Source: a virus
Taxonomy: Duplodnaviria; Caudoviricetes
Virus record (IMG/VR): IMGVR_UViG_3300029705_000041
DNA length: 64,000 nt
Reading direction: 5' to 3' (one strand)
Shown: one piece after another, positions 484-60,305 of the stretch
Position numbering within the stretch: the first letter of the stretch is position 1
Layout of the letters: each line of letters starts with the position of its first letter
Notes under the pieces: model-generated
What the model was told of the DNA's origin: nothing
Database searches by the model: none
Seen by the model: only the letters and a program-made list of their open reading frames with translations
Position numbers and translations under genes: made by a program

Positions 484-512
484 TTGAAAAAAGAGGGTTG
501 CTGTGGTATAAT
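484..512 (+). promoter_or_regulatory. Sigma-A promoter of the integrase
   Basis: TTGAAA(484-489), 17 bp, TATAAT(507-512), with extended TG. Confidence 0.75.
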
Positions 513-517
513 AATAC

Positions 518-551: not shown

Positions 552-557
552 AACACA

Positions 558-4495: not shown

Positions 4496-5233
4496 TTAAT
4501 TTTCAGAATTCAATAATGTAACCAATACCTCTGATTGATATTTTTCGGGTATTTCACAACCATATACAATAGCACTAATAGTATTAATACTTCTCAAAGA
4601 TGAAATATATAATTTCAATGAATTGTAGTATGTTGTATGATATGCAATGTGATTCTTTGCCTCTGTTATAATAATTAAAATATCTTCTACCGAATAGTAT
4701 TTACATGGCTCATTGTCTGCATGATATGGAATAGAAGTTTCTCCAGCAGAAACCATAGCTGAAAGTGTAGTTAAATTCAACTGGTCTTGTGTTGTAAGTG
4801 AAAAATGATAAGTCTCTCCATCAGATAAAACAACATCAATTCCATTCTCTATGGTTGACCTACAAGTGCTTTTCATTTCTTTTATTTTAGCATCTTTAAT
4901 AAATGCTACTGTCATTTCTTCCGGAACTTCTTCTGTTGTGTTGTCAATAGGTTCTTCCGCTTCAATTTCTATTTTTTCGTTTGTTTCAAAAGCTGCTACA
5001 AGAGCATTATATTCTTCTTCGTCAATAGAAACTATGTCGGCGGCAACAAATTCAGTTGGGGCAGCAAATTGTAACATCCAATCCGCACGATAAATAACTC
5101 CATTGCATATAATAGCTTCGGCAGAGGATTCGGATGCAAGCAAATACATCTTATGTAATAATTGATAACGAATTAAATCATCAGATGTTGCAACACCCAA
5201 AATAGTATTATCATTTACTATTTTATAATACAT
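4496..5233 (-). CDS. Phage tail-associated protein (DUF4376-like C-terminus)
   Basis: KIKEMK..C...IENGIDV...HFSLT..DQLNL...YHAD...C..YS pattern typical of phage tail accessory proteins. Confidence 0.6.
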   Translation of the reverse strand: MYYKIVNDNTILGVATSDDLIRYQLLHKMYLLASESSAEAIICNGVIYRADWMLQFAAPTEFVAADIVSIDEEEYNALVAAFETNEKIEIEAEEPIDNTTEEVPEEMTVAFIKDAKIKEMKSTCRSTIENGIDVVLSDGETYHFSLTTQDQLNLTTLSAMVSAGETSIPYHADNEPCKYYSVEDILIIITEAKNHIAYHTTYYNSLKLYISSLRSINTISAIVYGCEIPEKYQSEVLVTLLNSEN

Positions 5234-6461: not shown

Positions 6462-6479
6462 TCAACCATGTGATTATGG

Positions 6480-6677
6480 GTATGAAAATTAAACTGACTA
6501 TCAAGTTTAATCCATGCAAGTAGCTTCAACCCAGCTTCATCGGACTGCTATTATAGCAGGACAATCTTAAAGCAGAAAGTCGCAATATTTACCCTTTCGG
6601 GAAGGACAAACACTCCTTCAAGTGATGTTGTTGAATATTCATTTTTCACCCTCATTTTGTGGTTACTGTCATCAAAT
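6480..6677 (-). ncRNA. Structured DGR spacer RNA between TR and RT
   Basis: Hairpins GAAGGA..TCCTTC (6601-6619), CCC-GAAA-GGG (6592-6601), ATTAAACT..AGTTTAAT (6488-6511). Confidence 0.5.
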
Positions 6678-6804
6678 GAATCAGGGGCAAACGCCATTAG
6701 CATTGCTGGCGTTGTTGTTGTTGTTGTTACCTGTGTTGTTGACATTGTAGAAGTTAGTCGTGTTGGTAGCATTCGGAGAACGCTCCCACCAGTTGTACGC
6801 ACGA
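6678..6804 (-). repeat. DGR template repeat (TR)
   Basis: 127-nt AAC-rich copy of the VR; all substitutions versus the VR fall at TR adenines (minus strand). Confidence 0.95.
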
Positions 6805-7716: not shown

Positions 7717-10700
7717 TTACGCTCCGATAGAGAAGCAGGGGCAAACGCCACCAGCATAGCTGGCGCCGTAGTAGCTGCCGTTGCCACCTGTGCTGCCGAC
7801 ACTGCAGAAGGTAGTCGCGCCGGTAGCAACCGGAGAACGCTCCCACCAGCTGTACGCACGAATCCATAAACCACCGTCATCAGCTTCAATAAAATAAGTT
7901 TCATCGGCAGTATGATTATATAGCTCACGTGTTTCTGCATCCTCATATATATAAACAGCAGTATTGTTCTTCCATACATCTCCAGATTTAACTGTAAATA
8001 ATGTAGTTGGGTCTGATACAGATACTGTTGCTCCTGCCGTTGCGGTTGCGGCATAGTATGTCGCATCTTCCGGAACGATTCTGCCTATGAATTTTGCTCT
8101 AAATATATCAGAGTTTGCAACCAATGTGTTGCCGTACAAACCTTCTCTTACGTAAGGTTCGCCGCTGCCGCCAACTTCTCGCAATGATGGTAAATAAATA
8201 TAATCATCATCTGAACGAACTGGTGTGCTTGCGCTGTTTCCTGCTGCATTACCAACATTGGCGTAAGTCTTAACTCTCTTAATTAATGACCTTAATTGAA
8301 CAGGTAAACCACGATAAAAACGACCCATTTCACCAGCGTACTTTTCACTTGTTCCAACAGTATAAGTATCTTTAGAACAATCACTGTGTTCTGGATTCAA
8401 GAATTTTCTCATTTGAGTATCATGCCAACCAGAATATGTGTAATATCCATCTCCGGCACTTCCACCAGAAGTAGAGTAGTTATAATTACCAACATTCATT
8501 CTATGTGTATGCATAAGCAGTCCTTCAAACATAAAAGATACGGATGATGTTTTAAGAGCATTATCGGATAATGCATATCTTCCTGTGACATCGCCATCAG
8601 AAGAAGCAACCCTAATAACAACATTTTCAGTAGTCCAATCACAAATACTCCTTGCAACTGAATCACCAAGGTCATCAAACCATATTTTACACTTATGAAT
8701 AAATCCTTTTCCGAAAGCACCAAATCCAGAACTTGATTCTGCGCCACCAATTACAAGTTTTCCAGCACCAATACTTGAATTTGTTAATGTTGAAATTGTT
8801 TTACTGTCAGTAAAAGCAACAGGGGCATTAGTCGAAGGTGTTGTTGCAAGGTTAAATGAATATGTATATAGTTTATCTTCGCCCTTAATATGACGAATTA
8901 CTAACATATTTCTGTTTTTAGCATTTCCAACAATATTATAGGCGCTTCCAAAGTCAAGCCTATGACCACCGCTGTATTGTAGCCTCAAAGGAATGCTATT
9001 ATTAGTTGTATCAGATACAGATAAGAGAGTAGAAGTTAAACTTGTTGCTGTATATTCATAATCTAAACATAATGTAAATGATTTATCTTTATCTCCGAAC
9101 AATTCAACAACATTTCCATCTCCATCGGTTACTTCATATGCTGTAAATCCATCGAAATAAGTTGACTCCGAAATAATATCAATTTCTTCAACATTACTAA
9201 ACGAATAATCGTTACCCATTCTGAATGTTTTTCTGTCTCCACCTTTAATATAATTGTTTATAGAAAGAGGATAGCCAGCACAAATTCGATATATATCAGT
9301 CCATGAGGCATTATTTAGATATTCTGTATCTGAATCATCTCTAGTAACAGGAGCATTAGAAACTAAATCCCAAAGAGCAGTTACTGTCATATCACTAGTT
9401 ACATAGCCAGTAGACTTATTCCAGCCTTTGAATAAATAGAATCTCAATGAACTCTCAACAGCAGTATATGTTGGAATTCCATCTGCTGAAGGCATAAAAT
9501 CCCATACTGCTTCCGAACCATAAGATACGGTTTGTGTTTTAAGAGTTGTACCAAATCCATCAACCCATGTTACTGTAAATTCTCTTTCGACAGCAGTGTA
9601 CTGTGCTTTATAAGTAATTGTGTGACCTACATTTGTGGCAAAGTTGGTTGCACTTTCAGGATAGGTAACATCACTTGATACATCTTTCCAATTTTTAAAT
9701 GTATAGATATATCTTTCATCCATTGGTTTTACAGGTGTTGTATAATCGTCAAAATAATTTTTAGGATTGACAACGGTGCCGCCGGCATCTACCCATTCTG
9801 TAAATAAAATAGTTATTTCATCATCATCTATAAACTTAATTTCATGCTGTTCAATGTAAGTGTTATATGCAATTGTAAGGTCGTTACCCCAAATATCTAA
9901 ATATTCAATCTCTTTTGATTGTTTTAGTGTTGGAATAAATACATATCCTGTAAATACAGATTTAGACTGATTATATCCATTAGCATTATAACCAGCAAGA
10001 AGTTTTATATCATCAAGTATAGATGCAGTATCATTGTCGAGAATCCAATACATATTAGTTAATCTGATACGTTCAATATTATCGCACGCTTGATATAAAG
10101 CTAAAGCGTTAATACACGCCATATCAGAAGAAGCATTTAAAGATGCCTGATATGTATTGTCCATATTTTCTACAATTAACTGTTTAAGATTTGTATTACC
10201 TTCAAAAGTAAGAGTATCACTAACATCTTCTTTGCCATAGTAAAGTTTTGTTAAATTCTTTGCTATTAATGCCCCTATATCATTTAGCTCGGCTTTTTCA
10301 ACCATTCCACCAGTTGCAAACGTTATACCCGAACATTGTGTTCCTGTTGTATAAACTTCTTTTAACGCTTGGCAGTTTGAAAGGTCAAGCGCAGAATTAA
10401 ACGAAGCGCAATTACGTAAATCAAGAATTTCTAATAAAGTATTCGCAGAAACATCTATACCATTACCAGCCTCAGAACTACCAAATGAAGTATTAATATA
10501 ATCCTCATCAGCCGAACCAACATATAATTCTGTAAGTTTAGTAGCAGGAGAGAAGTTAGCATATCCTATATGTAATGAAGCTAGACCATTAATTTTTTGA
10601 ATAAGTGAAGCACTAAAAATATAAGTTTCTGTATCATTAAGAGTAAGATGAGTTAAATCAACTACAACCTTTTCACCTCTCATAGCTCTTTGTGTAATTC

Positions 10701-13700
10701 TTGTTGAACCAGCTTGAACAGCGACATAGACAGAAGCATAAGGAATGATTTCAAGTACACCACCTGAATATGAACGAACTGTAATAGCCGCAGAACTTCC
10801 TGTTGCAGCACTACCATTATATTTAGATGAACAATACAACTCTTGGTATGTTTCAAATAATGTTCTTTGTAATTCTTTCAAGCCATACATCATTGCAAAA
10901 TATGCAGAGTTTGAAGTATATCCACCTAATGTATTTGGATTTTCATAAGGTCTGATATATTTTCTTCTTGCATCAAACATTTGTAAGCGTCTACATTTAA
11001 CACTTTGATATGCTTTAAATTTATTGATAATACGAGTGGAATCCCAGGCACCCTTAGATTCGAGAGTTTTAAATAATGCTGCCAAATCATCGTACATATT
11101 TTCTCTGACATTCGCCCATAAAGTACAAGAATCAGCATCGCCAATGATAGATGCACCATTATATACATTACCATCGCCAATCTTATCAATATCTTCCATA
11201 CCAAAAGTCAAAGTAAGATTACCTTCATTATTATTTCCATCCGCCGTATCGTTATCATAGTCAAAAACTAAATCCCAATGAATACCATCAGATGTATGCC
11301 AGAAAGTATTTTTAGCTCGGTTATCAACCATAGTATGTCTTTCAGTAAACAAATAATGATAAAGAATACTATCCTTAATCATATATTCTTCAAATTCATT
11401 AACAAACTTAGCTTGTCTATATTCTGCACTATCTACAGTATAAGTAGTTTCACCATATGTTACAGATTCTTCGAGTGTCGCATTTGTTGCAGCTGCTGTA
11501 TCAGTAGAAGCAATAAATGTGTAAAGTCTTTTGAAACTGTCAATAAGACTCGTTTTATGCTCATCCTCTGTCCACACTTTACCATTCTTGTCGGTTAAGC
11601 CAAAATCTTCTGGGTATCTAAATTCAACGGAGTTATGCCAACCAACTTCCATTTGTGCATCAGTTGCATCACCCCAACCTTCCCAATTGAAAATTGTGTC
11701 ATAATCTGCAAGACCATTTGCCTTAAACGATGTTCCATCGTGCTTAAACAAACAAATTCTGTCAGTATTATTTGCAATTTCAACAATACATTCGTTAGGA
11801 TTTGTTTTGTCCATACCCATAGCAGCATGGTTTTTCTTTGAGTTACCAAAGTCACCACAAGAATAGAAGTGATAGTTGGTATCAGCAAACTCCTTATGTG
11901 TACTAATATCAGGATTTGACTCTCTAACAAAGATTACACAAGGATGGAATTCCATAGTGTCTCTAACTTTACTATTAGCCAATCTTGCTGCTCTTATGTA
12001 AGGTTGGAATGTATTGTAATCATCTGCAAGACACGCATTATTTGCATTTTCAGATGAAGCAACATTAACTTTGATATTAAAATAATTAACACCAATAGAA
12101 TTTTCTGTCATTGAATATGTATCAGAAGTTTTGCCATCATTAAATACAAAACCATTTGAACACTTAATATCCAAATTTCTCGAAGATGCGCCATACTGTT
12201 CGGATGAAGTACCTTGTCCTTTTAAAGTTATGCCTGATGCAGTCCAAGTGTGTGCTGCACCTCCAGCTGGATATATATGCTGAACCGAACAATCATATAA
12301 TACATTGCCTTCGCTATCTTTTAATGCTGTAACAGAATCTTTTTTACCTGTTGTAAACCTTGGACAGTCGATAAGGATAACTCTCATATCAGGAAGAATT
12401 GCATTTATCTTAGTGTAATCTAATTCGCCATCATCATTTAAAATATTATTCTTGTTATATCTGTCAGCCATTTCTGTTGCATCAGGAGCATCAGCAATAT
12501 AGTTTGCAATAAGGTCTGTGTCAGACAAATGAGTTCTATATGCCTTTAATCTATAAATCCACACATCACAGTTATCAGAACCAAAAATAATAGGTGCTTG
12601 TGTTGACTGCATAAATGCATCTGTCGCACTGTAAAGTTTAGGCTGAGTATAATCACCATCAAGCAAACAGAATATTTCAGAGAATCCACCTGAATTTTCG
12701 TCAGGTGTAATATTCCACTCAAATTCCATATATGTATCATCACAATACGGTACTTTTACTTTTTCTGCTGCCGAACCAGTACGTAAATAAGCATTAGTTG
12801 CTGTCATTTTCATACCGATGTTTCCGGACATACAAGACATTACCTCTGCCTCTAAATCTCTACAGTTGGTTGCTTTATAAATAAGTTTAAAATTCATACC
12901 AGTCTGCTTAATATCATCATCGCCAATAGGGAAGAACAAAGGATAATTAAGTGACATTGTAGTACCGGCTTTAACGCAGAAATAAGAATTTCCATCTTTA
13001 TCTGTTTTCCAACCACCATTAGTCCAGTCAAAATTATCTGATACACTCATTGTATATCCATTATTAGTATAGGTTGCAAAGTTGGTATCACTATTGCTTC
13101 TTCCAGAAGGATTAAAGTCAAATGCTTTACCAGAAACTTCATTTATATCATACGGAAATTTATTAATAGTTATAGGAATTTCTTTTGTTGTAGCGCCACA
13201 AGTAAAGACTATAACTTTATTCCCATAACTAGTTGGTTTGTAAGCCCAAGACTGTGCTGTTCTATCCACACTAACTGTTGTTGAACTATCAAGCGTTCTA
13301 ATTTCCTCACTGACACTATAAACAGAAATATTAACATTCGCTGTTTGTGAGGCGGGATTATAAACAAAATAATCCAATGTTAAAGCAGAATATTGTTCTC
13401 CATTATCGCCATTATAAGCACAACCAATTACTGGCGCTGTTTCTTCTGAATCTATATACATAATATCAAAATATAATATATCAGAAGTGATTGGAATTTC
13501 GTTGACTGTTGCAGTACAATATACCCTTAAAGAATGAGAACCGTGTCCTAAATCTTCTTTTGGAATAATAAGCGATTGAGCAACACCACTTGAAGTGTAT
13601 GCCTTTGAAAAATAAGGCTCATCCTCATTATCAAGATAAATATATACCGTTTTTTCAATGCCAGAGCCATTAGGTGTAAATCTAAATGTTACATCAGAAG

Positions 13701-15027
13701 AATATGTAAGTTTATCATCGAATGTAGAACTAATATACATATTGATTGCTCTTACAACCCATGTGGTAGTACCAATAGAACCATTACTATCTGTGATTTT
13801 TAATCTTACATTATTCGACCCACTGCTTAAAAATTTTCCGATATTAAAGCTGCAATTTCCTTGTGCTATGGTTTCAGTAGCAACTTTAATATTTGATACA
13901 TACCAATCGGCGGTACAGTCACCAGTAGCATCGCCAGTTGTATCAAGTGATGAAAAACTATACGATAACTCACAATCATCTCCAAGTAACATAGTTACTG
14001 GTGTTCTTGTGATTTTTTCAATAGTAACCGTTGAACCAGTTGCAACACCGCCGCCTCCAGCAGGTAAAGTAACTTGGTCTTGAATATTACCATCGCAATA
14101 TAATGTTAATACATTAGTTTCTTGGTCAAGTCTAATCATATATTCATGACCATCATTCATACTATTTAAGGTATCTTGAATATCACTAATATTATTTCCA
14201 TTTGTCTCAACATCTGTAAGTAAATTAGTGATACTGATATTCATATTGTTTACATTTCTTTGTAATTCTTCTATATCTGATTTTATATTAATAGTATCTC
14301 CGATATTTATCCAAATTTCTTCATCTTCATTTGAAATGTATCTGTAATGACTATAAACTCCATTAAATAAAATATAGTAATCAGTAAAAGAATTTGCGGT
14401 TATTGTATTTAAAAAGCTATCTATTGACTCACTATCACTTCCATTTAAAAATTGAGCAGTAGAACCGCCTACCATACAAAATTGACCGCCAATATATTTA
14501 TAATATAAACAACCATCAGAATTATGTACAATATAATCAACATCTTCTGAAGGTTGTACAATTTCAGTTAAAGCTCCGACAACTATTGTTGTAGCCGAGC
14601 CGAAAACATCCCATTTATATGCAATATTATCTTCATCATCAGAATATTTAATCCATACATATTTATCATATCCATTGCCCGCTTTATTAGGGACAAGATA
14701 GAATGTTGATACAGAAGGGCTTTCTACATTAGGGTATCCTTCAGCAGTTAAAGAATCTACAATTTCCCAACTTACTGCCTCATATGTTGAAAGTCTGCCA
14801 TCCGAATATTCTTTTGCTCTTGCAAATCCGGTTTCTGCACCAGCCTCAATAACTGCCGAAAGTGCATTTTTAAGATTGGAATATGTTTTATCATTGACAA
14901 TTCTTGCAGCAGAAATTTCAGAATTTATATTTCCAATCGAAGTATTTAAGTCCTCTTTAACTCCATCAGCATATTTTTTTGTAGCATAACTTTCTAAATC
15001 AGAGCTTAAAATGATTTTCTCTTTCAT
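7717..15027 (-). CDS. Giant tail/receptor-binding protein, DGR target with C-terminal C-type-lectin-like domain
   Basis: 2436 aa; beta-rich Ig/LamG-like stretches, CotH-kinase-like motifs, LRR-like stretch, InlB-B-type repeats (YTFKNW, YLFKGW), IYLPS..EV...WWERSP...GVCPCF C-terminus. Confidence 0.85.
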   Translation of the reverse strand: MKEKIILSSDLESYATKKYADGVKEDLNTSIGNINSEISAARIVNDKTYSNLKNALSAVIEAGAETGFARAKEYSDGRLSTYEAVSWEIVDSLTAEGYPNVESPSVSTFYLVPNKAGNGYDKYVWIKYSDDEDNIAYKWDVFGSATTIVVGALTEIVQPSEDVDYIVHNSDGCLYYKYIGGQFCMVGGSTAQFLNGSDSESIDSFLNTITANSFTDYYILFNGVYSHYRYISNEDEEIWINIGDTINIKSDIEELQRNVNNMNISITNLLTDVETNGNNISDIQDTLNSMNDGHEYMIRLDQETNVLTLYCDGNIQDQVTLPAGGGGVATGSTVTIEKITRTPVTMLLGDDCELSYSFSSLDTTGDATGDCTADWYVSNIKVATETIAQGNCSFNIGKFLSSGSNNVRLKITDSNGSIGTTTWVVRAINMYISSTFDDKLTYSSDVTFRFTPNGSGIEKTVYIYLDNEDEPYFSKAYTSSGVAQSLIIPKEDLGHGSHSLRVYCTATVNEIPITSDILYFDIMYIDSEETAPVIGCAYNGDNGEQYSALTLDYFVYNPASQTANVNISVYSVSEEIRTLDSSTTVSVDRTAQSWAYKPTSYGNKVIVFTCGATTKEIPITINKFPYDINEVSGKAFDFNPSGRSNSDTNFATYTNNGYTMSVSDNFDWTNGGWKTDKDGNSYFCVKAGTTMSLNYPLFFPIGDDDIKQTGMNFKLIYKATNCRDLEAEVMSCMSGNIGMKMTATNAYLRTGSAAEKVKVPYCDDTYMEFEWNITPDENSGGFSEIFCLLDGDYTQPKLYSATDAFMQSTQAPIIFGSDNCDVWIYRLKAYRTHLSDTDLIANYIADAPDATEMADRYNKNNILNDDGELDYTKINAILPDMRVILIDCPRFTTGKKDSVTALKDSEGNVLYDCSVQHIYPAGGAAHTWTASGITLKGQGTSSEQYGASSRNLDIKCSNGFVFNDGKTSDTYSMTENSIGVNYFNIKVNVASSENANNACLADDYNTFQPYIRAARLANSKVRDTMEFHPCVIFVRESNPDISTHKEFADTNYHFYSCGDFGNSKKNHAAMGMDKTNPNECIVEIANNTDRICLFKHDGTSFKANGLADYDTIFNWEGWGDATDAQMEVGWHNSVEFRYPEDFGLTDKNGKVWTEDEHKTSLIDSFKRLYTFIASTDTAAATNATLEESVTYGETTYTVDSAEYRQAKFVNEFEEYMIKDSILYHYLFTERHTMVDNRAKNTFWHTSDGIHWDLVFDYDNDTADGNNNEGNLTLTFGMEDIDKIGDGNVYNGASIIGDADSCTLWANVRENMYDDLAALFKTLESKGAWDSTRIINKFKAYQSVKCRRLQMFDARRKYIRPYENPNTLGGYTSNSAYFAMMYGLKELQRTLFETYQELYCSSKYNGSAATGSSAAITVRSYSGGVLEIIPYASVYVAVQAGSTRITQRAMRGEKVVVDLTHLTLNDTETYIFSASLIQKINGLASLHIGYANFSPATKLTELYVGSADEDYINTSFGSSEAGNGIDVSANTLLEILDLRNCASFNSALDLSNCQALKEVYTTGTQCSGITFATGGMVEKAELNDIGALIAKNLTKLYYGKEDVSDTLTFEGNTNLKQLIVENMDNTYQASLNASSDMACINALALYQACDNIERIRLTNMYWILDNDTASILDDIKLLAGYNANGYNQSKSVFTGYVFIPTLKQSKEIEYLDIWGNDLTIAYNTYIEQHEIKFIDDDEITILFTEWVDAGGTVVNPKNYFDDYTTPVKPMDERYIYTFKNWKDVSSDVTYPESATNFATNVGHTITYKAQYTAVEREFTVTWVDGFGTTLKTQTVSYGSEAVWDFMPSADGIPTYTAVESSLRFYLFKGWNKSTGYVTSDMTVTALWDLVSNAPVTRDDSDTEYLNNASWTDIYRICAGYPLSINNYIKGGDRKTFRMGNDYSFSNVEEIDIISESTYFDGFTAYEVTDGDGNVVELFGDKDKSFTLCLDYEYTATSLTSTLLSVSDTTNNSIPLRLQYSGGHRLDFGSAYNIVGNAKNRNMLVIRHIKGEDKLYTYSFNLATTPSTNAPVAFTDSKTISTLTNSSIGAGKLVIGGAESSSGFGAFGKGFIHKCKIWFDDLGDSVARSICDWTTENVVIRVASSDGDVTGRYALSDNALKTSSVSFMFEGLLMHTHRMNVGNYNYSTSGGSAGDGYYTYSGWHDTQMRKFLNPEHSDCSKDTYTVGTSEKYAGEMGRFYRGLPVQLRSLIKRVKTYANVGNAAGNSASTPVRSDDDYIYLPSLREVGGSGEPYVREGLYGNTLVANSDIFRAKFIGRIVPEDATYYAATATAGATVSVSDPTTLFTVKSGDVWKNNTAVYIYEDAETRELYNHTADETYFIEADDGGLWIRAYSWWERSPVATGATTFCSVGSTGGNGSYYGASYAGGVCPCFSIGA
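7732..7861 (-). repeat. DGR variable repeat (VR)
   Basis: Encodes RAYSWWERSP...GGVCPCF at the target C-terminus; matches TR except at adenines plus one extra codon. Confidence 0.95.
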
Positions 15028-31508: not shown

Positions 31509-32561
31509 TTACAACTCCTGCAAAGAGGATTGTTTTACTTGTTTAATACCTTCAGCACCAAAATATTTTTCAAATTGTGCTTCTGCGGTTTGGTCATTAT
31601 ATAAATGAACCATATCTGCTGATTCCCAACCTACAATATCTTGAATAACACTATCAGGCAGATTAGATTCAGATAATTTAGTTGTAAAATAATGCCTTAG
31701 ACTATGCCAATAAAAAGATTTATTTAACATTCTTGAAAATGTTCTAGCCCAAGAATCCAATAATACAACATCTGTTTGTTCATCTAACCATTCTCCGTCT
31801 TTATATTTAGGGAATAACCATTCACTTGTTATACCAAGTTCTTTTCTTTGAGCCAACCATAAATCTAAATATGGTTGAAATGGTTTTGCAAGTGTATATA
31901 CATCAAGTAATTTTCCTCTTGAACCTCTACCTTTTGTCATCATTTTCTCCGGAGTTTTATATAATGCTCCTTCGCATATCAAATTTTCTTTATCAAAATA
32001 TGAAACTTTAAATCTCGGTAATTCAGCTTTACGTCTGCCGCTATTAATAGCTAACGATAAAGCACAAGCTTTCATATATTGTCTTTTTTCAACGAGCGTA
32101 TTAAGCAATGGTATTAAATCATCTTCTTGAAAGACTGTTTTTACTCTAACAGCTGTATCTGCCGGAGATTCTATTTTTCTTACAATAGGTTTATATCCTT
32201 CAAATTCATCATCTAAAATATTTTCTATGTAATTACTTAGAGAAGAAATAGTGGCTTTAACAGTTCTAATTCTTTTTGGAGACCATTGCCAAACATTAAT
32301 AGCATGGCTCTGAAACTTTGAAATTTCACGTTTAGTTAATTCTACAAAAAACTTATTGTTATTAAATTCCAAATTCCAACACCAAAAAACATGAAGATTT
32401 GCTTTATATTGCTTAATAGTTCCTTTTGACCTATCTATAGAAGTTAAATATTCTAAAAAATCATTTTCTAATTCTATATTTTCTGGATTAACCTGTTTTA
32501 ACTTATCTTCGGAAGTAATATCATTATATACAGTAGTTCTTCCTTCTTTTTGATTAGCCAT
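31509..32561 (-). CDS. Tyrosine recombinase (YomM-like position)
   Basis: SGRRKAEL, HSLRHYF, VGW.S..MV..Y catalytic set. Confidence 0.9.
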   Translation of the reverse strand: MANQKEGRTTVYNDITSEDKLKQVNPENIELENDFLEYLTSIDRSKGTIKQYKANLHVFWCWNLEFNNNKFFVELTKREISKFQSHAINVWQWSPKRIRTVKATISSLSNYIENILDDEFEGYKPIVRKIESPADTAVRVKTVFQEDDLIPLLNTLVEKRQYMKACALSLAINSGRRKAELPRFKVSYFDKENLICEGALYKTPEKMMTKGRGSRGKLLDVYTLAKPFQPYLDLWLAQRKELGITSEWLFPKYKDGEWLDEQTDVVLLDSWARTFSRMLNKSFYWHSLRHYFTTKLSESNLPDSVIQDIVGWESADMVHLYNDQTAEAQFEKYFGAEGIKQVKQSSLQEL

Positions 32562-46445: not shown

Positions 46446-46533
46446 TGGCGGAGAGCCTGGGACTCGAACCCAGAAACCGTTTCCGATTCGGCAGTTTTCA
46501 AGACTGCTGCCTTACCAATTAGGCTAACTCTCC
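46446..46533 (-). tRNA. tRNA-Ser(TGA)
   Basis: Cloverleaf, GCAGT-CT-TGA-AA-ACTGC, long variable arm, CCA. Confidence 0.95.
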
Positions 46534-46573
46534 ATACAGACCGCAAGACCGAAGTTCATTGCAGTACAAATTG

Positions 46574-46650
46574 TGGTTGCGGGAATGGGACTCGAACCCA
46601 TGACATCAAGCTTATGAGGCTTGCGAGCTAACCATCTGCTCTATCCCGCA
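46574..46650 (-). tRNA. tRNA-Met(CAT), atypical
   Basis: CAAGC-CT-CAT-AA-GCTTG, T-loop, CCA. Confidence 0.9.
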
Positions 46651-47527: not shown

Positions 47528-48742
47528 TTATAATTCAATTGGATAACACGCTTTGACACCAGTATCATTTAACACAACCACCATTTGACTTGCATTACCA
47601 AAAATTCTTTTAGAAACACAATAATCGTCACCGGTTCCAGAAAAACTTCCACTTCTAATGATTTTTACTCCATAAATATCATCATAGCTACATTTATGCA
47701 TATGACCATAAAAAATAGCGGTTGGTTTATATCCAATCATCATAACTAACTTTGAAACGCCAGCCTGATTAAATGAATCCCAATCGCCATGAACAAGTAA
47801 ATATTCATTACCTCTAATTGTGATTTTTCCAATAGTGTCATCATAATTTTCGTTATCTACAAAAGTAATATTTTCTATATGTTGCAACGCAGCTTTCATA
47901 TACCACGGAATTAAATTATCAAGTCTATTTCCTCTTAAAACCTGGTCTTTATATGAAGTCCTGCTATGATTTCCCGCAACGCCATTTACAAATACATTTT
48001 TAAAATGTTTGCTTAATTCATAAATGAACGAAGAAAGAAGTTCAGCACACTTTTGTACTTGCGTTGTTAAATTTTCTCTATTCTCTAATTGTGTAGTGAA
48101 ATGAATTTCACCATTTATTAAATCTCCTAAAAAACCAACGTATGCGTTTTCGGAGTTATGTAATTTTTGAATTTCAATAATCTTTTCAAGATATTCTGAT
48201 AATCGTTGTGCAGCAATATCAGAATTATATTTTCCAAAATAATTATCATTTGATGAACCTAAATGAAAATCAGATATACAAATAAACAAATCATTGTCAG
48301 AATTATTTAACGGAGTAGGGTGCGGTGTTAAATAATTAAAAGCTCGTTCTTTTACTAATTTTTCTAAATATTCTAAATCATTTTCACAACGTGCTTGTTC
48401 TCTAAGTAATTTATTTAATCCTGTACGTTCATCATATAATTTTTGTTTTTCTTTTCGTATTTCTTGTTTTTCGGCTCTGATTTCTGCTAAATATGTATCA
48501 TCGTCATTACTGATAGCTTTTTTTGACTTAAAATACTCTGATACGAAAGCACCTCCAAAAATCGTTTGAGTGGCTTTACGCAAGGTATCATAATGAATAT
48601 CAAGTCCATACTTATCAATAATTTCTTGCCAATCCAAATCAATAACATGGTTGGCTTTTGCATAAGCATCAGATAAACATGATTCATATTGTTCCGGAGT
48701 CAAGCCATACTCTCGAATCTTTTCTTTTAAATCTTCAATCAT
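47528..48742 (-). CDS. Calcineurin-like metallophosphoesterase (YonJ-like)
   Basis: SDFHLG, GDLING, GNH, HGD, GHMH motifs. Confidence 0.88.
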   Translation of the reverse strand: MIEDLKEKIREYGLTPEQYESCLSDAYAKANHVIDLDWQEIIDKYGLDIHYDTLRKATQTIFGGAFVSEYFKSKKAISNDDDTYLAEIRAEKQEIRKEKQKLYDERTGLNKLLREQARCENDLEYLEKLVKERAFNYLTPHPTPLNNSDNDLFICISDFHLGSSNDNYFGKYNSDIAAQRLSEYLEKIIEIQKLHNSENAYVGFLGDLINGEIHFTTQLENRENLTTQVQKCAELLSSFIYELSKHFKNVFVNGVAGNHSRTSYKDQVLRGNRLDNLIPWYMKAALQHIENITFVDNENYDDTIGKITIRGNEYLLVHGDWDSFNQAGVSKLVMMIGYKPTAIFYGHMHKCSYDDIYGVKIIRSGSFSGTGDDYCVSKRIFGNASQMVVVLNDTGVKACYPIEL

Positions 48743-49391: not shown

Positions 49392-50834
49392 CTATAGATG
49401 AATGACCATATCCTTAAATGAAGATATAACACGATATGTTTTGTCATTCTTTGAAATTGCTTCTTTTAATTTTTCTGATAATTTCTTTTTACTTTCAGAT
49501 GAACCATGCACCAAAACTAATTTATTTGTTTTTAAAGAGCTACCATATTTAATCAAATCCTTATTATTTGCATGACTACTAAAAGTAGAAAGTGTAATAC
49601 AATCTGCTCTATTTGCAATCTGCTCCTTATTGATGCTTATAAATTTATGTTCTCTGTAGTTTTTTATTCTATACGATAAATAAGATGGATTATCTCCGGC
49701 ATAACCCGAAAATATAATCATACTATTTCTATCTTTTAAGTATTTCTTTATATAATTTACAATTCTTCCATTTGTACAAAAACCGGAAGAAGATATAATT
49801 ATCTTTGACTGTTGGTTAGCAACCCATAATTGAGATTCTTCTTTTTCTGAAACAAATTTAACATTCTCCCAATTACATATTGAATTCCATAAAATTAAAT
49901 CATCTTCTGATAGTAATGTAGAATATAGTTTACATATTTCACAACTTAATTTAGAATCTACTATAATTGGAATTGAAAAGTTTTCGTCATTCCCATAAAT
50001 TCCATATAGTGTTGTCAACAATTCTTGCGTTCTACTAAAACTAAAACATGGGAGTATTACACTACCATGTCTTTCGATAACTGTATTTATAGCGGCTGTC
50101 AGATGCTCAATATCAAAATTTCTTGATTTTTTGGTTTCTCTTTTTGTGTCTCCGTATGTAGATTCCATTATTACAACATCATTAAACATTTCGGGAATTT
50201 CAGTGTTCTCTAAATAATGATTTTGTGTATTTAATGCGCCAATATCAGAAGTATAAAGAATTTTCCTCTTTTTATTATCTGAATTTAAAATCAATTGTAA
50301 TTGTGCTGCTCCTAAACAATGTGAGTTTTTTAACCATTGAAAGCTTATACTATCATTTAATGTATATACATGATTGTAATTATCAAAAATTTCAATCATT
50401 TCCAAAGCTTTATATACATCCGATTCTTCATATAGTGGTTTATACTCTCTCTTATATTTACGAGATAATATTTTTGCTTCCTCTGTAACAATAAAACATG
50501 AATTAAGCAAAAGCGGTTTCATAACCATTGCTGTATTCTTTGTTGTAATTATTTTACCATTAAAACCCTCTTTTACAAGACGTGGGATTAATCCACAATG
50601 GTCTATGTGAGGATGTGCAACAAAAACAAAATCTATTTCTGAAGGTTTAAACTTAAATTTAGCTGAATTAATTTTATAAGAATCTAAATAACTATTACTC
50701 TGTGATTGATGTAAACCACACTCAAAAAGACATTGATAAATTCCAAATCGTACAAGGTATTGTGACCCTGTAACATCTTCTGCGGCTTTTCCAGTAAAAT
50801 ATATTCCGTCACTTTTCAATTTCTTTTTTGTCAT
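49392..50834 (-). CDS. Metallo-beta-lactamase beta-CASP ribonuclease
   Basis: VTGS, HPHIDH, SHCLG, SDIG, ESTYG, R.QEL, SSHA, LVHG. Confidence 0.9.
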   Translation of the reverse strand: MTKKKLKSDGIYFTGKAAEDVTGSQYLVRFGIYQCLFECGLHQSQSNSYLDSYKINSAKFKFKPSEIDFVFVAHPHIDHCGLIPRLVKEGFNGKIITTKNTAMVMKPLLLNSCFIVTEEAKILSRKYKREYKPLYEESDVYKALEMIEIFDNYNHVYTLNDSISFQWLKNSHCLGAAQLQLILNSDNKKRKILYTSDIGALNTQNHYLENTEIPEMFNDVVIMESTYGDTKRETKKSRNFDIEHLTAAINTVIERHGSVILPCFSFSRTQELLTTLYGIYGNDENFSIPIIVDSKLSCEICKLYSTLLSEDDLILWNSICNWENVKFVSEKEESQLWVANQQSKIIISSSGFCTNGRIVNYIKKYLKDRNSMIIFSGYAGDNPSYLSYRIKNYREHKFISINKEQIANRADCITLSTFSSHANNKDLIKYGSSLKTNKLVLVHGSSESKKKLSEKLKEAISKNDKTYRVISSFKDMVIHL

Positions 50835-51047: not shown

Positions 51048-51123
51048 TGGAGCTGATGGTGGGACTCGAACCCACAACCGACTGATTACAAGTCAGTTAC
51101 TCTACCAATTGAGCTACATCAGC
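51048..51123 (-). tRNA. tRNA-Thr(TGT)
   Basis: ACTGA-CT-TGT-AA-TCAGT, CCA. Confidence 0.95.
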
Positions 51124-51126
51124 ATA

Positions 51127-51203
51127 TGGTGACGCTAGCCAGAATCGAACTGGCATTGCATCCTTGAAAGGGATGTGTCCTAGACCGTTTAGACGATAGC
51201 GCC
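51127..51203 (-). tRNA. tRNA-Glu(TTC)
   Basis: CATCC-CT-TTC-AA-GGATG, CCA. Confidence 0.93.
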
Positions 51204-51206
51204 ATA

Positions 51207-51282
51207 TGGCTCCTCCAGCTGGACTTGAACCAGCGACATCATGATTAACAGTCATGCGCTCTACCGGCTGAGCTATAGAGGA
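51207..51282 (-). tRNA. tRNA-Asn(GTT)
   Basis: CATGA-CT-GTT-AA-TCATG, CCA. Confidence 0.95.
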
Positions 51283-51288
51283 ATATAG

Positions 51289-51364
51289 TGGCGGCTTGTG
51301 AGGGAATCGAACCCTCATCTTCGGAGAGACAATCCGATATACTTAGCCATTATACGAACAAGCC
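51289..51364 (-). tRNA. tRNA-Asp(GTC)
   Basis: TCGGA-TT-GTC-TC-TCCGA, CCA. Confidence 0.9.
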
Positions 51365-51369
51365 ATTTT

Positions 51370-51456
51370 TGGTGGGCAGGGTAGGATTTGAACCTACGAA
51401 GCCGTAAGGCAACAGATTTACAGTCTGCCCGCTTTGAGCCGCTTGCATACCTACCC
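51370..51456 (-). tRNA. tRNA-Tyr(GTA)
   Basis: GCAGA-CT-GTA-AA-TCTGT, long variable arm, CCA. Confidence 0.95.
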
Positions 51457-52999: not shown

Positions 53000-53890
53000 T
53001 TATTTACTTTCATGCTCTTGTTTGTTTCTATAATATCGTTCAAGTTCTTTTTCTGCTTTATATTTTTTACGATACTTGATATAACAAGTCGGACACCTAT
53101 TACTTTGGTGGTCTTTTGAATTTGTCTCATATACCAAACCACAATCAACGCAAACAATTGTTTTTGTTTCCTGGGGAGTATATCCGGCACAAGCTGAACA
53201 ATATTTTTTTGTACCAGCTTTATTATTGCGGATTAAAATACCGCAATCTTGACAACGAATAAAATTTCCGTTTTCAGTAAATTTTAAATATTCATATCCA
53301 AGCTCTCTAAAGTCTGATATAAATAACACTTTTTCACTTTCATCATTTATAAATGTTACCCTGCTACTTAAATTATCATTTTTTTTAGGAAACTCTAGTA
53401 AGTTAATCTGATTAAGCATTCCAAAACGCTCATAACGATTTACTACACTACAAGAAATTCTAGCAAGACTAAAAATCTCTTTGGCATCAGTGTTTACCCA
53501 GCCTTGATTTTGCGGATTCTTTATATTGTTTAATTTGGCAAGACAAAGCATTGTAAAAGCAAGTCGTTCTAAAACCTTGTTGTGTATGTTTTGTATTGTT
53601 TCTAATTCTGCTTTTGTAATCCAAATACCATCTATTTCAAACAAAGTGAACTTTCCGGCATTAGCCGCTAATTTTTCTATATTTTCATCCCAACTTGATT
53701 TATTACTTGAATAGTGTGGGTAATACCTATTCATGTAATCTATAAGTAAATCTGTAATTTTCTTTTTTCTATATCCATAACAATGATAATAATATTTAGC
53801 CAGGACTGACAACGTAATAAATGGCTTATTATTAACTGTTTTACTTTTTAAACATTCTTCTGCATACTCTTTTTCATTTAATATAATCAT
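53000..53890 (-). CDS. Zn-finger protein, putative transcription factor coupled to the phage RNAP
   Basis: Overlaps the RNAP stop; four C-terminal CxxC pairs. Confidence 0.65.
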   Translation of the reverse strand: MIILNEKEYAEECLKSKTVNNKPFITLSVLAKYYYHCYGYRKKKITDLLIDYMNRYYPHYSSNKSSWDENIEKLAANAGKFTLFEIDGIWITKAELETIQNIHNKVLERLAFTMLCLAKLNNIKNPQNQGWVNTDAKEIFSLARISCSVVNRYERFGMLNQINLLEFPKKNDNLSSRVTFINDESEKVLFISDFRELGYEYLKFTENGNFIRCQDCGILIRNNKAGTKKYCSACAGYTPQETKTIVCVDCGLVYETNSKDHQSNRCPTCYIKYRKKYKAEKELERYYRNKQEHESK

Positions 53891-56673
53891 ACGTTGGCAT
53901 CACCACCAATCTCCTTTTCGCACATAGTGAAATATTCTCCGCAATACTCAAAACTGTTTGGTTCGTTTTTGTCTGTTTTTTGAGGATAATATATTTTGTG
54001 ATTATTATTCTTTAGTAAATTATCTAAAATTACATTGCCACATACATCCCACGCAAACTGTTTTGTTTTTTCCGCTTTATATGATATATCTAACACAATA
54101 TCACATAATTCACGTTCATTAGTACAAACTTCTTCGCATTCACGTTTAAATCTGTCTACAAACATAGTTCGTTGTTGCCAACATTCAAATGCATCCATTT
54201 TTTCGGTACGTTTTCTTTGTTGAAACTTATCAATATTCCTTTGATAATCTTCATATATTTTGAGGACACTTTCGTAATTTCTTCTGCTGTACTCAACATG
54301 ACTTTTAAGGATATTATAATCAAATTCCGGCTGTTCATATTTTTTTGAAAGATAACTATTGAATTCTTTTTCAAATATCCAACATATACGATTTACAACA
54401 CACGTATTATATCCAACAGGTATAAATCTTTCATAATAATCTAAATAATTAATCATATCCTGTGTTTTTGGTTCGTAATTATATAAATCTTGAACGCTAT
54501 GTATTCCATAAGAACTAAATCTCATTATTGCACCATAATCACTATTTTTCATATATGTATTATTTTTAGTTCTAAGAGCTGGATATACATATGTCATAAA
54601 ATATGGTTTATTTGCTGCAACGATTTTTTGATTAAATTCTTTTTTCTTGATTTCTTCTGGAGTATCATCATCTTTAATCATATTATCTCTCATACTATAC
54701 CAATATGCCGGCATTGGTTTTGCGATTATTCCCTTGGCTCTATCAATTGTGTTTTGCTGATATAACTGACCACACATGATTCTATAGGCAAGTGTTTCAT
54801 ACTCCTTTGAACCTGGTTCAAATCCTGCTTGAACTTCAATCATACTTGTAACATGATTGGTTACTGTGCCTATATCATCATTAAAAGCTAACTTATTAGC
54901 TTGAATAATATCTTCTTCATTAGCAATCTTCTTTTCAGCTTTTCGTTGCATACAAACGATGGTGGGGGAGTTAAGAGTTCTTTTTACAATAATTGGATTA
55001 TCGGTGTCCATATTTGTATCTCCATCTTTGTCGGCACCATTCATTGCATCACAAGCTGTGTCCCATGCATTAAGTATAGCAGCAGTAGAAATATATTGAT
55101 ACCAATGTGATGTTTGCTCATTATTGCATAACTTCATTTTACGAATATTATTATGACAAGTCATTGGCGCACGAAAACAAGCTAATTCAGTAGAACCTTT
55201 ATCAATCCAATATTTATGATATATTTCTCCAGCTTTTAATAATCCAGTAACTTCTAAACCAAACATACTTTGAGCCAAAGCATAAGGGTCTCCGGAAATC
55301 ATTGCAAAGTTAGCGTTTACTTTTATTGCACCACGTTTTGCCATTTCTATTCGCTTTACAATCATATTCCAAATCTTCCGGCGAATAAATGGGTCGTTAA
55401 TCATTCGTTTGTCAATCATCAATGCTCTTACACAATAATCAAAAGTATCATTAAACGCATTTTCATCATTTAAACCAAAGCCAGCTAAAAATACAAGACT
55501 TCTTCGATAATCCATTCCTAAAACACCTTTAATCTCATCTATTGTCGGATTACATAATTCTTGTAATTCTTCATCAGTAAAATTGTAGCTTTGTAAAAAT
55601 TGATAATTTGTATATCTAACATTTTCTAATTCTTCTGGCGTGGTTTTTGGAGTCGAAAATTGATAATGGTTTTCTTGGCAATTTCTATAATAATCTTCCC
55701 AACTCTCATAACTATCCCAGAGTTTTAACATAGAAACTGTAAGAATGACTTCTGCATCTCTAATATCTCTTTTATCGCCCCATGCATCAATTATCTCAAA
55801 AGTTCCTGCAATTTTTTCTGCAAATTCTATGAAATCAAATGTGTAAATCATACCCTTAGTCCATGCATAACGTGTATTCATACCCGAAATAACTTTTGAG
55901 TCATCACCGGTTAAATATCCATTTACTTTCTTAGAGTAAGAGGGAAGCATAAGACCATATCCATCCGAATCATTATGCTCAATTTCAAAATCTTTTATTT
56001 TTGTCATTATAGGTTCGCCTTCGGCTTCATCATTTATCATAATGACATCATCTTTAAAAAATGTTATACAATCATTAACCACAATAATTCCTTTAGGTTC
56101 AGGGATAGGAGTAGAGCCAGAACAAATCAGAGCTTGATATGCTTCTAGTTTTGCCGGTACCACCGGAATATCTTTGTTTCGTCCGTTGTCTAATCTCTTT
56201 TTTAATTCGGGATATAATTGTTCATTAACATAAACAATTGTTGAATTTTTTATGCCACCATTCGTTCCTAGAAATCGTTTATACTTAATACCATTAATAG
56301 TAAAGCCTTTATTAGCTCTATCATAATCTGAATTACTATCCATAATAATGCAGACATAATCCTTTTGAAACTGAAGGTTATATAGATTTTCGTATAAAGC
56401 CTTTATAATCATTTTAGTTTCACGGCTCTTAGGTTTCTTTTTTTCATATTTAATTTTTTTCTTTATATCTTTAACTTTGCCATTTATATCAGAAATTCCA
56501 TTAAGCTCATCTATAAATCTTAAAAGTTGACTATCATTTAAAGAAACAATATCTTCCGGATAATCACGCATAGCAACTTCTAATGGCAAAGATAGATTCC
56601 AATTTGCTTTCTTCAATCTTTTACTATGTAGTTTATATATAAACTTTAGATAGCTTTTTTGCTCCATTCGCAT
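53887..56673 (-). CDS. yonO: YonO-like single-subunit RNA polymerase
   Basis: NGADKDGD catalytic motif, DGYG, R...KG, FRAP; SPbeta-like context. Confidence 0.88.
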   Translation of the reverse strand: MRMEQKSYLKFIYKLHSKRLKKANWNLSLPLEVAMRDYPEDIVSLNDSQLLRFIDELNGISDINGKVKDIKKKIKYEKKKPKSRETKMIIKALYENLYNLQFQKDYVCIIMDSNSDYDRANKGFTINGIKYKRFLGTNGGIKNSTIVYVNEQLYPELKKRLDNGRNKDIPVVPAKLEAYQALICSGSTPIPEPKGIIVVNDCITFFKDDVIMINDEAEGEPIMTKIKDFEIEHNDSDGYGLMLPSYSKKVNGYLTGDDSKVISGMNTRYAWTKGMIYTFDFIEFAEKIAGTFEIIDAWGDKRDIRDAEVILTVSMLKLWDSYESWEDYYRNCQENHYQFSTPKTTPEELENVRYTNYQFLQSYNFTDEELQELCNPTIDEIKGVLGMDYRRSLVFLAGFGLNDENAFNDTFDYCVRALMIDKRMINDPFIRRKIWNMIVKRIEMAKRGAIKVNANFAMISGDPYALAQSMFGLEVTGLLKAGEIYHKYWIDKGSTELACFRAPMTCHNNIRKMKLCNNEQTSHWYQYISTAAILNAWDTACDAMNGADKDGDTNMDTDNPIIVKRTLNSPTIVCMQRKAEKKIANEEDIIQANKLAFNDDIGTVTNHVTSMIEVQAGFEPGSKEYETLAYRIMCGQLYQQNTIDRAKGIIAKPMPAYWYSMRDNMIKDDDTPEEIKKKEFNQKIVAANKPYFMTYVYPALRTKNNTYMKNSDYGAIMRFSSYGIHSVQDLYNYEPKTQDMINYLDYYERFIPVGYNTCVVNRICWIFEKEFNSYLSKKYEQPEFDYNILKSHVEYSRRNYESVLKIYEDYQRNIDKFQQRKRTEKMDAFECWQQRTMFVDRFKRECEEVCTNERELCDIVLDISYKAEKTKQFAWDVCGNVILDNLLKNNNHKIYYPQKTDKNEPNSFEYCGEYFTMCEKEIGGDANV

Positions 56674-59117: not shown

Positions 59118-59146
59118 TTGACAAGTTAAAAAGTATGTGTTATACT
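59118..59146 (+). promoter_or_regulatory. Early sigma-A promoter 1
   Basis: TTGACA, 17 bp, TATACT; extended TG; A-tract UP element. Confidence 0.85.
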
Positions 59147-59217
59147 GATTACAACATCAAACAAAACCGCTTTACAATAGCACATAAAAAAATTTAAAAA
59201 ATAATTCAAAAAAAGTA

Positions 59218-59246
59218 TTGACAAACTAAAAAAGATGTGCTATAAT
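59218..59246 (+). promoter_or_regulatory. Early sigma-A promoter 2 (copy exactly 100 bp downstream)
   Basis: TTGACA, 17 bp, TATAAT; extended TG; A-tract UP element. Confidence 0.88.
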
Positions 59247-59329: not shown

Positions 59330-59638
59330 ATGAAAAAATTTATTCTTTATGTAGGACTCAACGACCAAAACACAAAACAGCAAGAGGTTACAACTTTAGA
59401 TGCTTATAAAATAGCAACAAATATTTTTATAGAATATGTTGGCGGAGCAACCATCACGGAAGCAAAGGGAATATATACACATGAAGATGGAACCGTTGTA
59501 ACTGAAACAACTTTAAGATGTGAAATTTTTGGAGCAAATGCAGAACAAATTGAAAAGGCTGCAAGTCAATTGAAAATTGCATTAAATCAAGAATCTATTG
59601 CAATAGAAGAAATCGAAACAAATTCAAGATTTTTCTAA
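59330..59638 (+). CDS. DUF3574-like protein, putative SAM lyase (anti-restriction)
   Basis: GATITEAKGIY..E..VTE.T and LNQESI motifs; first gene behind the early promoters. Confidence 0.55.
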   Translation: MKKFILYVGLNDQNTKQQEVTTLDAYKIATNIFIEYVGGATITEAKGIYTHEDGTVVTETTLRCEIFGANAEQIEKAASQLKIALNQESIAIEEIETNSRFF

Positions 59639-59695
59639 ATGCCCTGATGAGTCTTTGAAAATTAAGACGAAACCGGCAAAAAAGCCGGTCGGCAT
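59639..59695 (+). ncRNA. Type I hammerhead ribozyme 1
   Basis: ATGCC-CTGATGA-GTCTT/AAGAC-GAAA-CCGGC/GCCGG-TC^GGCAT; cleavage predicted after 59690. Confidence 0.92.
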
Positions 59696-59731
59696 ACGCC
59701 AAAAAATATTTATGAATTGAGGTACAAAAAC

Positions 59732-59992
59732 ATGACAAGAACTACACATTTAAAAGCACATCCGAGCTGTCAGTGCAAAATTAATATTGACGGTAACAGA
59801 ATCGACTTTATAAGTTATACCACTAGAGTTATATCTATTATTGTTGAGAACGGCAAGCGCCTAGTTGAATGTACCGGCACATATAGCCGCACAACAGCAA
59901 AACAAATCACTTATTTTTTAAGAGAATATGCGCCGGACTTATGCCTGGAAGATATGAAGAAAATCCAGGGGGAAGGGTTTGTGGTTTGTTAA
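59732..59992 (+). CDS. Early hypothetical protein flanked by hammerheads
   Basis: GAGGT RBS; SY.T.V...YSRTT.KQI..F motif. Confidence 0.75.
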   Translation: MTRTTHLKAHPSCQCKINIDGNRIDFISYTTRVISIIVENGKRLVECTGTYSRTTAKQITYFLREYAPDLCLEDMKKIQGEGFVVC

Positions 59993-60043
59993 AAATAATA
60001 CAGAAAAAGTATATAAATATAATTAGAGGAAAATTTGATAAAA

Positions 60044-60100
60044 AACCGCTGATGAGTCTTTGAAAATTAAGACGAAACGCCCATCAAAGGGCGTCCGGTT
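60044..60100 (+). ncRNA. Type I hammerhead ribozyme 2
   Basis: AACCG-CTGATGA-GTCTT/AAGAC-GAAA-CGCCC/GGGCG-TC^CGGTT; cleavage predicted after 60095. Confidence 0.92.
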
Positions 60101-60134
60101 AAATACCGTAAAATTTCACCTGGAGGGTTATAAA

Positions 60135-60305
60135 ATGAGTATAGAAAAAATCAGTAAAATTTTAAATCAGCATTCAGTACCTTTTAAGATTTTAAACGGT
60201 AGAATTTATGCAGACAGTATGCAAGCCGGAACAAAACTTTTTGAGGCTGTAGAAGATTTGACAGATAGCTCTCCAGAAAATTTATATGAATGGTTAGGAT
60301 ATTAA
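60135..60305 (+). CDS. Small early protein
   Basis: GGAGG RBS, ATG60135; ends WLGY. Confidence 0.7.
   Translation: MSIEKISKILNQHSVPFKILNGRIYADSMQAGTKLFEAVEDLTDSSPENLYEWLGY

Follow-up and report, generated by a model that had tools for sequence, protein, structure and literature searches.

Two type I hammerhead ribozymes around a DUF8033 gene: a candidate self-processing module in a phage early operon

Two complete hammerhead ribozymes, termed here HH1 and HH2, flank a single small gene of the DUF8033 family in the early operon of a gut phage. They are probably active type I hammerheads of a widespread module that lies between phage cistrons, and they would enable an early mRNA driven by sigma-70-type promoters to process itself. 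The initial annotation of this DNA had already proposed that the early transcript is cut without host nucleases. The proposal is now strengthened by intact cores, by covariation in more than 100 copies, by the promoters, and by a strict position between genes, while the cleavage itself is predicted from sequence.

The early operon and its two hammerheads

The window, which is the whole stretch of 64,000 nucleotides (64 kb) analysed here, carries terminase, portal, and tail genes and is thus phage DNA. A 928-aa protein encoded at 53887-56673 on the minus strand shares about 38% identity with proteins of Clostridium phage c-st and Enterocloster phages. A record for one relative of this protein is annotated 'RNA-dependent RNA polymerase', and the relatives presumably represent the YonO-type phage RNA polymerase family. 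Judging from the relatives and from the genomes bearing the same ribozyme core, this phage group seems to infect Clostridia. A crAss-like origin was considered and rejected: the sole DNA matches, to Suoliviridae, consist of the ribozyme alone, and protein similarity leads to the c-st and Enterocloster phages.

The plus-strand operon starts after a divergent region. Its genes are arranged in the order 102-aa gene, HH1, DUF8033 gene, HH2, 56-aa gene, followed by more small genes. Two promoter-like sequences of the sigma-70-type consensus precede them, and no terminator-like site was found on the plus strand between the second of these and position 61000. The features of the locus are as follows.

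59118..59146, plus strand: promoter-like sequence P1, TTGACA-17-TATACT with extended -10 TG, 11/12 consensus, upstream of the first plus-strand gene
59218..59246, plus strand: promoter-like sequence P2, TTGACA-17-TATAAT with extended -10 TG, 12/12 consensus
59330..59638, plus strand: first operon gene, 102 aa, weak resemblance to S-AdoMet lyase and DUF3574
59639-59695, plus strand: HH1, type I hammerhead, predicted cut after C59690, model R1 78.3 bits, E 1e-22
59691-60095, plus strand: 405-nt unit between the predicted cuts, ends predicted as 5'-OH and 2',3'-cyclic phosphate from established hammerhead chemistry
59691-59700, plus strand: predicted 5'-terminal hairpin of the HH1 3' product, GGC-AUAC-GCC, -4.3 kcal/mol
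59732..59992, plus strand: 86-aa gene of the DUF8033 family (PF26096), Shine-Dalgarno (SD) sequence GAGG at 59719-59722
60044-60100, plus strand: HH2, type I hammerhead, predicted cut after C60095, model R1 79.8 bits, E 4e-23
60096-60108, plus strand: predicted 5'-terminal hairpin of the HH2 3' product, CGGU-UAAAU-ACCG, -3.7 kcal/mol
60135..60305, plus strand: next gene, 56 aa, no known family, start 39 nt past the HH2 cut, SD sequence GGAGGG at 60122-60127

The Pfam matches of the 102-aa gene stay below threshold (PF12098, 19.9 bits; PF23780, 17.9 bits), and its protein has no sequence match in the PDB. An assignment as SAM lyase or DUF3574 is not relied on, as the similarity is sub-threshold. 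The 86-aa protein gave no Pfam match when searched alone. Its structure model is confident (pLDDT 93), with no PDB sequence match, no Foldseek match at E below 0.5, and VIA-align Z scores of at most 4.6.

Read base by base, HH1 and HH2 are complete type I hammerheads of 57 nt each on the plus strand, with an open stem I and with loops capping stems II and III. They have the following parts.

HH1 stem I, plus strand: AUGCC (59639-59643) with GGCAU (59691-59695), full pairing
HH1 core, plus strand: CUGAUGA (59644-59650) and GAA (59669-59671)
HH1 stem II, plus strand: GUCUU/AAGAC with loop UGAAAAUU (59651-59668)
HH1 stem III, plus strand: ACCGGC/GCCGGU (59672-59689), C17 at 59690
HH2 stem I, plus strand: AACCG (60044-60048) with CGGUU (60096-60100), full pairing
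HH2 core, plus strand: CUGAUGA (60049-60055) and GAA (60074-60076)
HH2 stem II and loop, plus strand: same as in HH1, GUCUU/AAGAC with loop UGAAAAUU
HH2 stem III, plus strand: ACGCCC/GGGCGU, C17 at 60095

The core positions C3-U4-G5-A6-N7-G8-A9 and G12-A13-A14 are satisfied in both copies. The A15.1-U16.1 pair and H17 are present as well (A59672-U59689 with C59690; A60077-U60094 with C60095), together with the 1.1-2.1 pairs (G59691-C59643 in HH1; C60096-G60048 in HH2) and the 10.1-11.1 pairs (G59651-C59668 in HH1; G60056-C60073 in HH2). A stretch of 30 nt, reaching from the core to the first base pair of stem III, is identical between HH1 (59644-59673) and HH2 (60049-60078), where shuffled sequences give an expectation of 0 such matches; stems I and III differ between the copies. 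The loose pattern CUGAUGA...CGAAA occurs at just two sites in the 64 kb, namely HH1 and HH2. Moreover, the minimum-energy structure of both 57-mers is a three-way junction (z -3.8 and -2.5). The intact cores, identical stem II, and compensatory stems I and III described in the initial annotation are thus borne out at every base. Its GUC cleavage sites after 59690 and 60095, bracketing the ribosome-binding site and the 86-aa reading frame, and its 405-nt single-gene unit between the cuts also hold at these coordinates.

At gathering thresholds, Rfam calls no ribozyme in the 64-kb window. The best Rfam match is the RAGATH-1-hammerhead (RF03152), with 29.4 and 25.8 bits against a cut-off of 56.3, and Hammerhead_3 (RF00008) matches in part with 18.6 bits against 48.5. 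The missed thresholds reflect the make-up of the models and not the lack of a core feature. The RAGATH-1 hammerhead reportedly came from a search by Weinberg et al. in 2015 around genes associated with twister and hammerhead ribozymes. Like the window copies, it is of type I and has the GUC site, a hairpin as stem III, and a stem I that is short and preceded by an A-rich flank. However, its Rfam consensus line has a stem II of a single pair closing a loop of about 7 nt and an extra 5' hairpin, whereas stem II of the window copies spans 5 bp below an 8-nt loop, and no convincing hairpin precedes them on the 5' side.

A hammerhead family with a fixed place between cistrons

The 29-nt core with stem II recurs exactly in more than 119 IMG/VR contigs among the matches listed. 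It is also found in two crAss-like Suoliviridae genomes and in 38 stretches of species-representative genomes, mostly Clostridia and Lachnospiraceae bins, with others from Bacteroides, Elusimicrobia, Melainabacteria, and Berkelbacteria. A hammerhead core is therefore common to Clostridia phages, crAss-like phages, and genome bins of several phyla, yet it lies below the Rfam thresholds. A covariance model (R1) was built from 32 family copies; after HH1 and HH2, its next-best match in the 64-kb window reaches about 16.4 bits.

The sequences of stems I and III vary freely among the copies and their pairing is kept. Among 108 distinct viral copies from the matches listed, 85 combine a U-H cleavage site with at least 5 bp in stem I and at least 4 bp in stem III. 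The same pairing test is passed at a rate of 7% when the upstream flanks are swapped among copies and of 0.5% at random places, and this comparison serves as the unbiased control for covariation. Double compensatory changes occur in 10 of 16 pairs with 100% pairing, a figure that is illustrative, as the copies were pre-selected for pairing and the count is circular. Covariation of stems I and III has selection on the RNA as its sole explanation. Stem II covaries too in neighbouring members of arrays (GUAUU/AAUAC, GUCGU/ACGAC, GUCUC/GAGAC), and the loop stays UGA[A/G]AAUU. Furthermore, two adenines directly 5' of stem I (A-7 and A-6) are conserved in 96% and 81% of the family. Because loop II is invariant and this flank is conserved, we infer that the two form the tertiary contact required by natural hammerheads. 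In the window copies, stem I is just 5 bp long.

Copies not passing the type I test have the same core in a type III permutation, as at 326-374 of contig L060. The same type III form of the 29-nt core with stem II is seen in L018, L024, L075, L082, L105, L115, L121, and L126; in this form a UGUA loop caps stem I, and stem III (GCUGU/ACAGC) is left open. Circularly permuted forms of the module therefore exist.

Arrays with a spacing of 375-750 nt are present in at least 14 other viral contigs. Near the contig ends of L014, L027, L037, L058, L084, and L116, within the first 1.3 kb, three type I hammerheads follow one another with cut spacings of about 376 and 410 nt, splitting off one 97-aa gene and one two-gene block. 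No homology was found between the window genes and the genes between hammerheads in the other arrays, so no cargo is conserved across the family.

The position relative to genes is strict. Of the 93 distinct family members whose flanks are long enough, 83 are preceded by a long reading frame that ends at or within the ribozyme. The stop codon lies exactly at the 5' edge of the ribozyme in 40 of these members, where the UAA gives the conserved adenines; a further 16 stop at the UGA of the core and 8 at the UGA of loop II. The distance from the cut to the next SD-led start codon has a median of 40 nt (interquartile range 34-44, 93 family members). The window follows the same layout, with 41 nt from cut to ATG for HH1 and 39 nt for HH2. 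HH1 begins 0 nt past the upstream stop and HH2 51 nt past it. The UAA stop of the 102-aa gene (59636-59638) abuts HH1 and supplies its A-7/A-6 flank. Additionally, the freed strand of stem I tends to be recaptured downstream of the cut: a 5'-terminal hairpin of at least 4 bp is predicted in 39% of family copies compared with 18% in shuffles.

Such layouts have been known in phages since 2011. Perreault et al. 2011 (PMC3088659) describe multiple hammerheads flanking single genes or short blocks in prophages, and put forward a processing hypothesis. They tested arrays from Clostridium scindens, Azorhizobium, and Agrobacterium prophages, and polycistronic constructs of 2 kb were cleaved by the clustered hammerheads both in vitro and in E. 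coli. Those arrays resemble the present one in having several same-strand hammerheads between small phage genes of varying identity, and in the proposed role of turning long phage transcripts into single-gene mRNAs. One of them flanks the anti-restriction gene ardA, and the first gene here is weakly SAM-lyase-like. An array of that type, with at least two same-strand hammerheads flanking a single gene in a phage genome, is what HH1-DUF8033-HH2 constitutes. At the present locus, both hammerheads are of type I and keep stem II and loop II invariant. It differs from those arrays in its cargo, DUF8033, in the evident promoters for the host polymerase, and in being known from its sequence alone. 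The locus leaves the general picture of what such ribozymes do unchanged. What it contributes is a clean case downstream of strong host promoters, a positional rule that holds across a family, the sharing of an exact 29-nt core, and the replacement of one ribozyme class by another at a single junction.

Ribozymes around DUF8033 in related phages

Related loci were found with an alignment search for DUF8033, which has 93 homologues; the single protein as a query gave none. Homologues of the 102-aa gene lie upstream of DUF8033 in several phages (E 1e-10 to 1e-54), and occupy the same position in L129, L132, and L161-L164. The ribozymes upstream and downstream of DUF8033 are as follows.

Window and L128: type I hammerhead upstream; type I hammerhead downstream
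L129-131: type II hammerhead upstream (35.3 bits, cut-off 37); type I hammerhead downstream
L132-135: twister-P5 upstream (56.7 bits), with a short uncalled frame before DUF8033; type II-like hammerhead with a CCGAUGA core downstream
L162: type I hammerhead upstream; twister-P5 downstream
L161: type II hammerhead upstream; twister-P5 downstream, only past the next gene
L163: type II hammerhead upstream; pistol downstream (54.5 bits), only past the next gene
L136: type I hammerhead upstream; twister-P5 downstream, 226 nt beyond the gene end
L164: type I hammerhead upstream; none downstream
L139: twister-P5 upstream; none downstream
L137 and L138: none upstream; twister-P5 downstream
L166: none upstream; type I hammerhead downstream
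L165: none upstream; none downstream
L140-L160: none within 700 nt on either side, save a sub-threshold twister-P1-like match upstream in L160

Where the 102-aa gene meets DUF8033, an orthologous junction, the ribozyme is a type I hammerhead in L162 and L164, a type II hammerhead in L129, L161, and L163, and twister-P5 in L132. This comparison covers L129, L132, and L161-L164; in L136 and L139 the ribozymes sit upstream of DUF8033. Three kinds of ribozyme are thus found directly beside DUF8033, and pistol lies one gene downstream in L163. The HH2 site is kept in L128-L131, with a wobble-preserving change in L129. Such replacement of class at one junction suggests that cleavage between cistrons is the selected trait.

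Four lineages (window/L128, L129-131, L132-135, and L162) have ribozymes on both sides of DUF8033 alone. The relatives also show one-sided, absent, or other-class ribozymes; therefore it is cutting between cistrons that recurs, and not one fixed excised unit. As the pair is not obligatory, the pattern fits ribozymes that would act as independent cutters between cistrons, and not a device for releasing one RNA. The distant DUF8033 loci with no ribozyme within 700 nt imply that the gene can do without the ribozymes.

Twister, pistol, and hammerhead ribozymes are known to share gene neighbourhoods (PMC6765202, PMC8782182). The operons of the relatives resemble these in holding type I and type II hammerheads, twister-P5, and pistol around the same genes. 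They differ in that the replacement takes place at one orthologous junction, beside DUF8033 proteins 64-80% identical to that of the window, which makes this a finer-grained case. The role of self-cleaving ribozymes in bacteria and phages is still open according to a review (PMC6765202). The locus is an unusually clean test case, with two perfect ribozymes around one small gene, and the ribozyme classes of its relatives are natural swap controls for mRNA stability, translation, and possible circularisation.

Several ribozyme classes occur within a few kb in the homologous early operons. Apart from the ribozymes directly beside DUF8033, these operons contain the pistol ribozyme at 1272-1338 of L163 (54.5 bits) and a further type II hammerhead at 5474-5546 of L129 (44.5 bits). 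In L132 (3286-3342), and likewise in L133-L135, the type II hammerhead-like element directly after DUF8033 has C for U at position 4. Its three helices are intact, Rfam gives no match to it at E 0.01, and it represents either a natural variant of the core or a copy in decay.

Fate of the processed RNAs and alternative readings

In the favoured scheme, the host RNA polymerase would start at the two sigma-70-type promoters (59118-59246) and make one long early transcript. Each hammerhead would fold while emerging and cut after its GUC, so that the message would be split into an mRNA for the 102-aa gene, a 405-nt DUF8033 mRNA, and the downstream genes. The upstream pieces would end in hammerhead stems II and III with a 2',3'-cyclic phosphate. 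The downstream pieces would begin with a 5'-OH about 40 nt before the start codon, held here in a small 5'-terminal hairpin. The cistrons could then differ in stability and translation with no need for host RNase III or RNase E/Y sites. Some findings weigh against this scheme, namely the missed Rfam gathering scores, the distant DUF8033 loci with no ribozyme within 700 nt, and a stem I of just 5 bp, for which fast cleavage at cellular Mg2+ would depend on the putative tertiary contact.

Even if the transcript is cut, the consequence could be the opposite of stabilisation. The 5'-OH ends might serve as entry points for decay by exposing the downstream cistrons to a 5'-exonuclease of the RNase J type, in which case the ribozymes would lower expression or limit it in time. 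We regard this as unlikely. In its favour, the hosts look like Clostridia, which use RNase J, and among the phage's own genes is one for a beta-CASP/RMMBL nuclease of the RNase J/CPSF-73 superfamily (49392-50834). The glmS ribozyme is a precedent, as the 5'-OH that it makes in Firmicutes is a target of RNase J1 (cited in PMC6765202). However, the 3' products tend toward the terminal hairpin described above, both window products included, and such a hairpin would hinder 5' exonucleases. Moreover, the SD sequence lies near the new 5' end, where ribosomes could give protection, and the phage nuclease is only a putative player by its domain content. A different view places the function in the DNA, with the 29-nt core as a patch of homology through which small early genes are exchanged and RNA cleavage as secondary. 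The identical core in phages and genome bins of several phyla, the varying genes between hammerheads, and the gain, loss, and replacement of ribozyme sites between close relatives would all agree with a mobile cassette. Nevertheless, this view is very improbable, because stems I and III covary and the fold is kept in nearly every copy. Recombination within the HH1 and HH2 cores would leave a hammerhead with a mismatched stem I, and the same junctions harbour ribozymes of other classes that show no sequence similarity. It is harder still to believe that HH1 and HH2 are inactive relics or chance motifs with no present function. The missed Rfam thresholds would agree with that, but every core position is intact in both copies, the family model gives E values of about 1e-22, the HH2 site in L129 has changed in a way that preserves a wobble pair, and compensation extends through the whole family.

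A further possibility concerns the 405-nt piece, which an RtcB-type ligase could close into a circle. The circle would be unable to cut itself again and would act as a long-lived template for DUF8033. The predicted ends have the right chemistry for RtcB (PMC8782182), and the unit holds its own SD sequence and a complete reading frame. As the initial annotation had foreseen, the ligated junction would set AACCG opposite GGCAU as a mismatched stem I, so the ribozyme would be dead; only 2 of 5 positions can pair. RtcB (PF01139) is present in 3 of 5 genomes bearing the same ribozyme core, which makes a host ligase plausible, and the bracketing of DUF8033 alone in the four lineages is also in line with a circle. 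On the other hand, the ends are not predicted to pair: the first 20 nt and the last 70 nt have 0.004 expected pairs with each other. In the predicted 405-nt fold, HH2 stems II and III retain the 3' end, and the 5' end pairs with itself. The ribozyme is one-sided or absent in L164, L166, L137-L139, and L165. In addition, circular or spliced products were considered for the clustered prophage hammerheads by Perreault et al., who reported detecting none (PMC3088659). No RtcB was found among 30 window ORFs scanned, comprising 10 small operon ORFs (Pfam and PHROGs), 10 large ORFs (PHROGs), and 10 more (Pfam), in a window that is part of the phage. A genome bin holding a DUF8033 relative, which may be incomplete, gave no RtcB match either. 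A helix holds the ends together in viroids and retrozymes (PMC5680766, PMC7229834) and in engineered twister circles, and the circle or multimer re-forms the ribozyme. The window unit is like these and like engineered twister circles in lying between self-cleaving ribozymes, with 5'-OH and 2',3'-cyclic phosphate ends that could be joined by tRNA ligase or RtcB. In contrast to them, its ends are not predicted to pair and its ligated junction is a dead ribozyme. A circular DUF8033 mRNA is hence distinctly doubtful. We would be slightly more reluctant to accept that this unit, and by extension other single-gene units between ribozymes, are ligated by host RtcB into translated circular mRNAs that outlast the linear early transcripts. 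If true, they would be a natural counterpart, in a bacterial virus, of engineered circular mRNAs made by ribozymes.

Several other genes of the window deserve mention alongside the self-processing scheme. The nuclease at 49392-50834 is encoded on the minus strand, measures 480 aa, and has metallo-beta-lactamase, beta-CASP, and RMMBL domains; as a member of the RNase J/CPSF-73 superfamily, it could matter for RNAs with 5'-OH ends. It is adjoined by an SbcD-like exonuclease gene (47528-48742). A reverse transcriptase gene (5223-6680, minus strand; PF00078, 67 bits) overlaps at its 5' end with an Rfam RT-2 RNA (6413-6680; 47.6 bits, cut-off 40), and is adjoined by a 2436-aa ORF (7717-15027). This arrangement may be a diversity-generating retroelement. 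Seven tRNA genes lie in two minus-strand clusters at 46449-46650 and 51051-51456 (Rfam tRNA, 50-76 bits). The window also encodes a large serine recombinase (498-2063, plus strand) and a tyrosine integrase (31509-32561, minus strand), and the presence of both suggests a temperate or mosaic phage.
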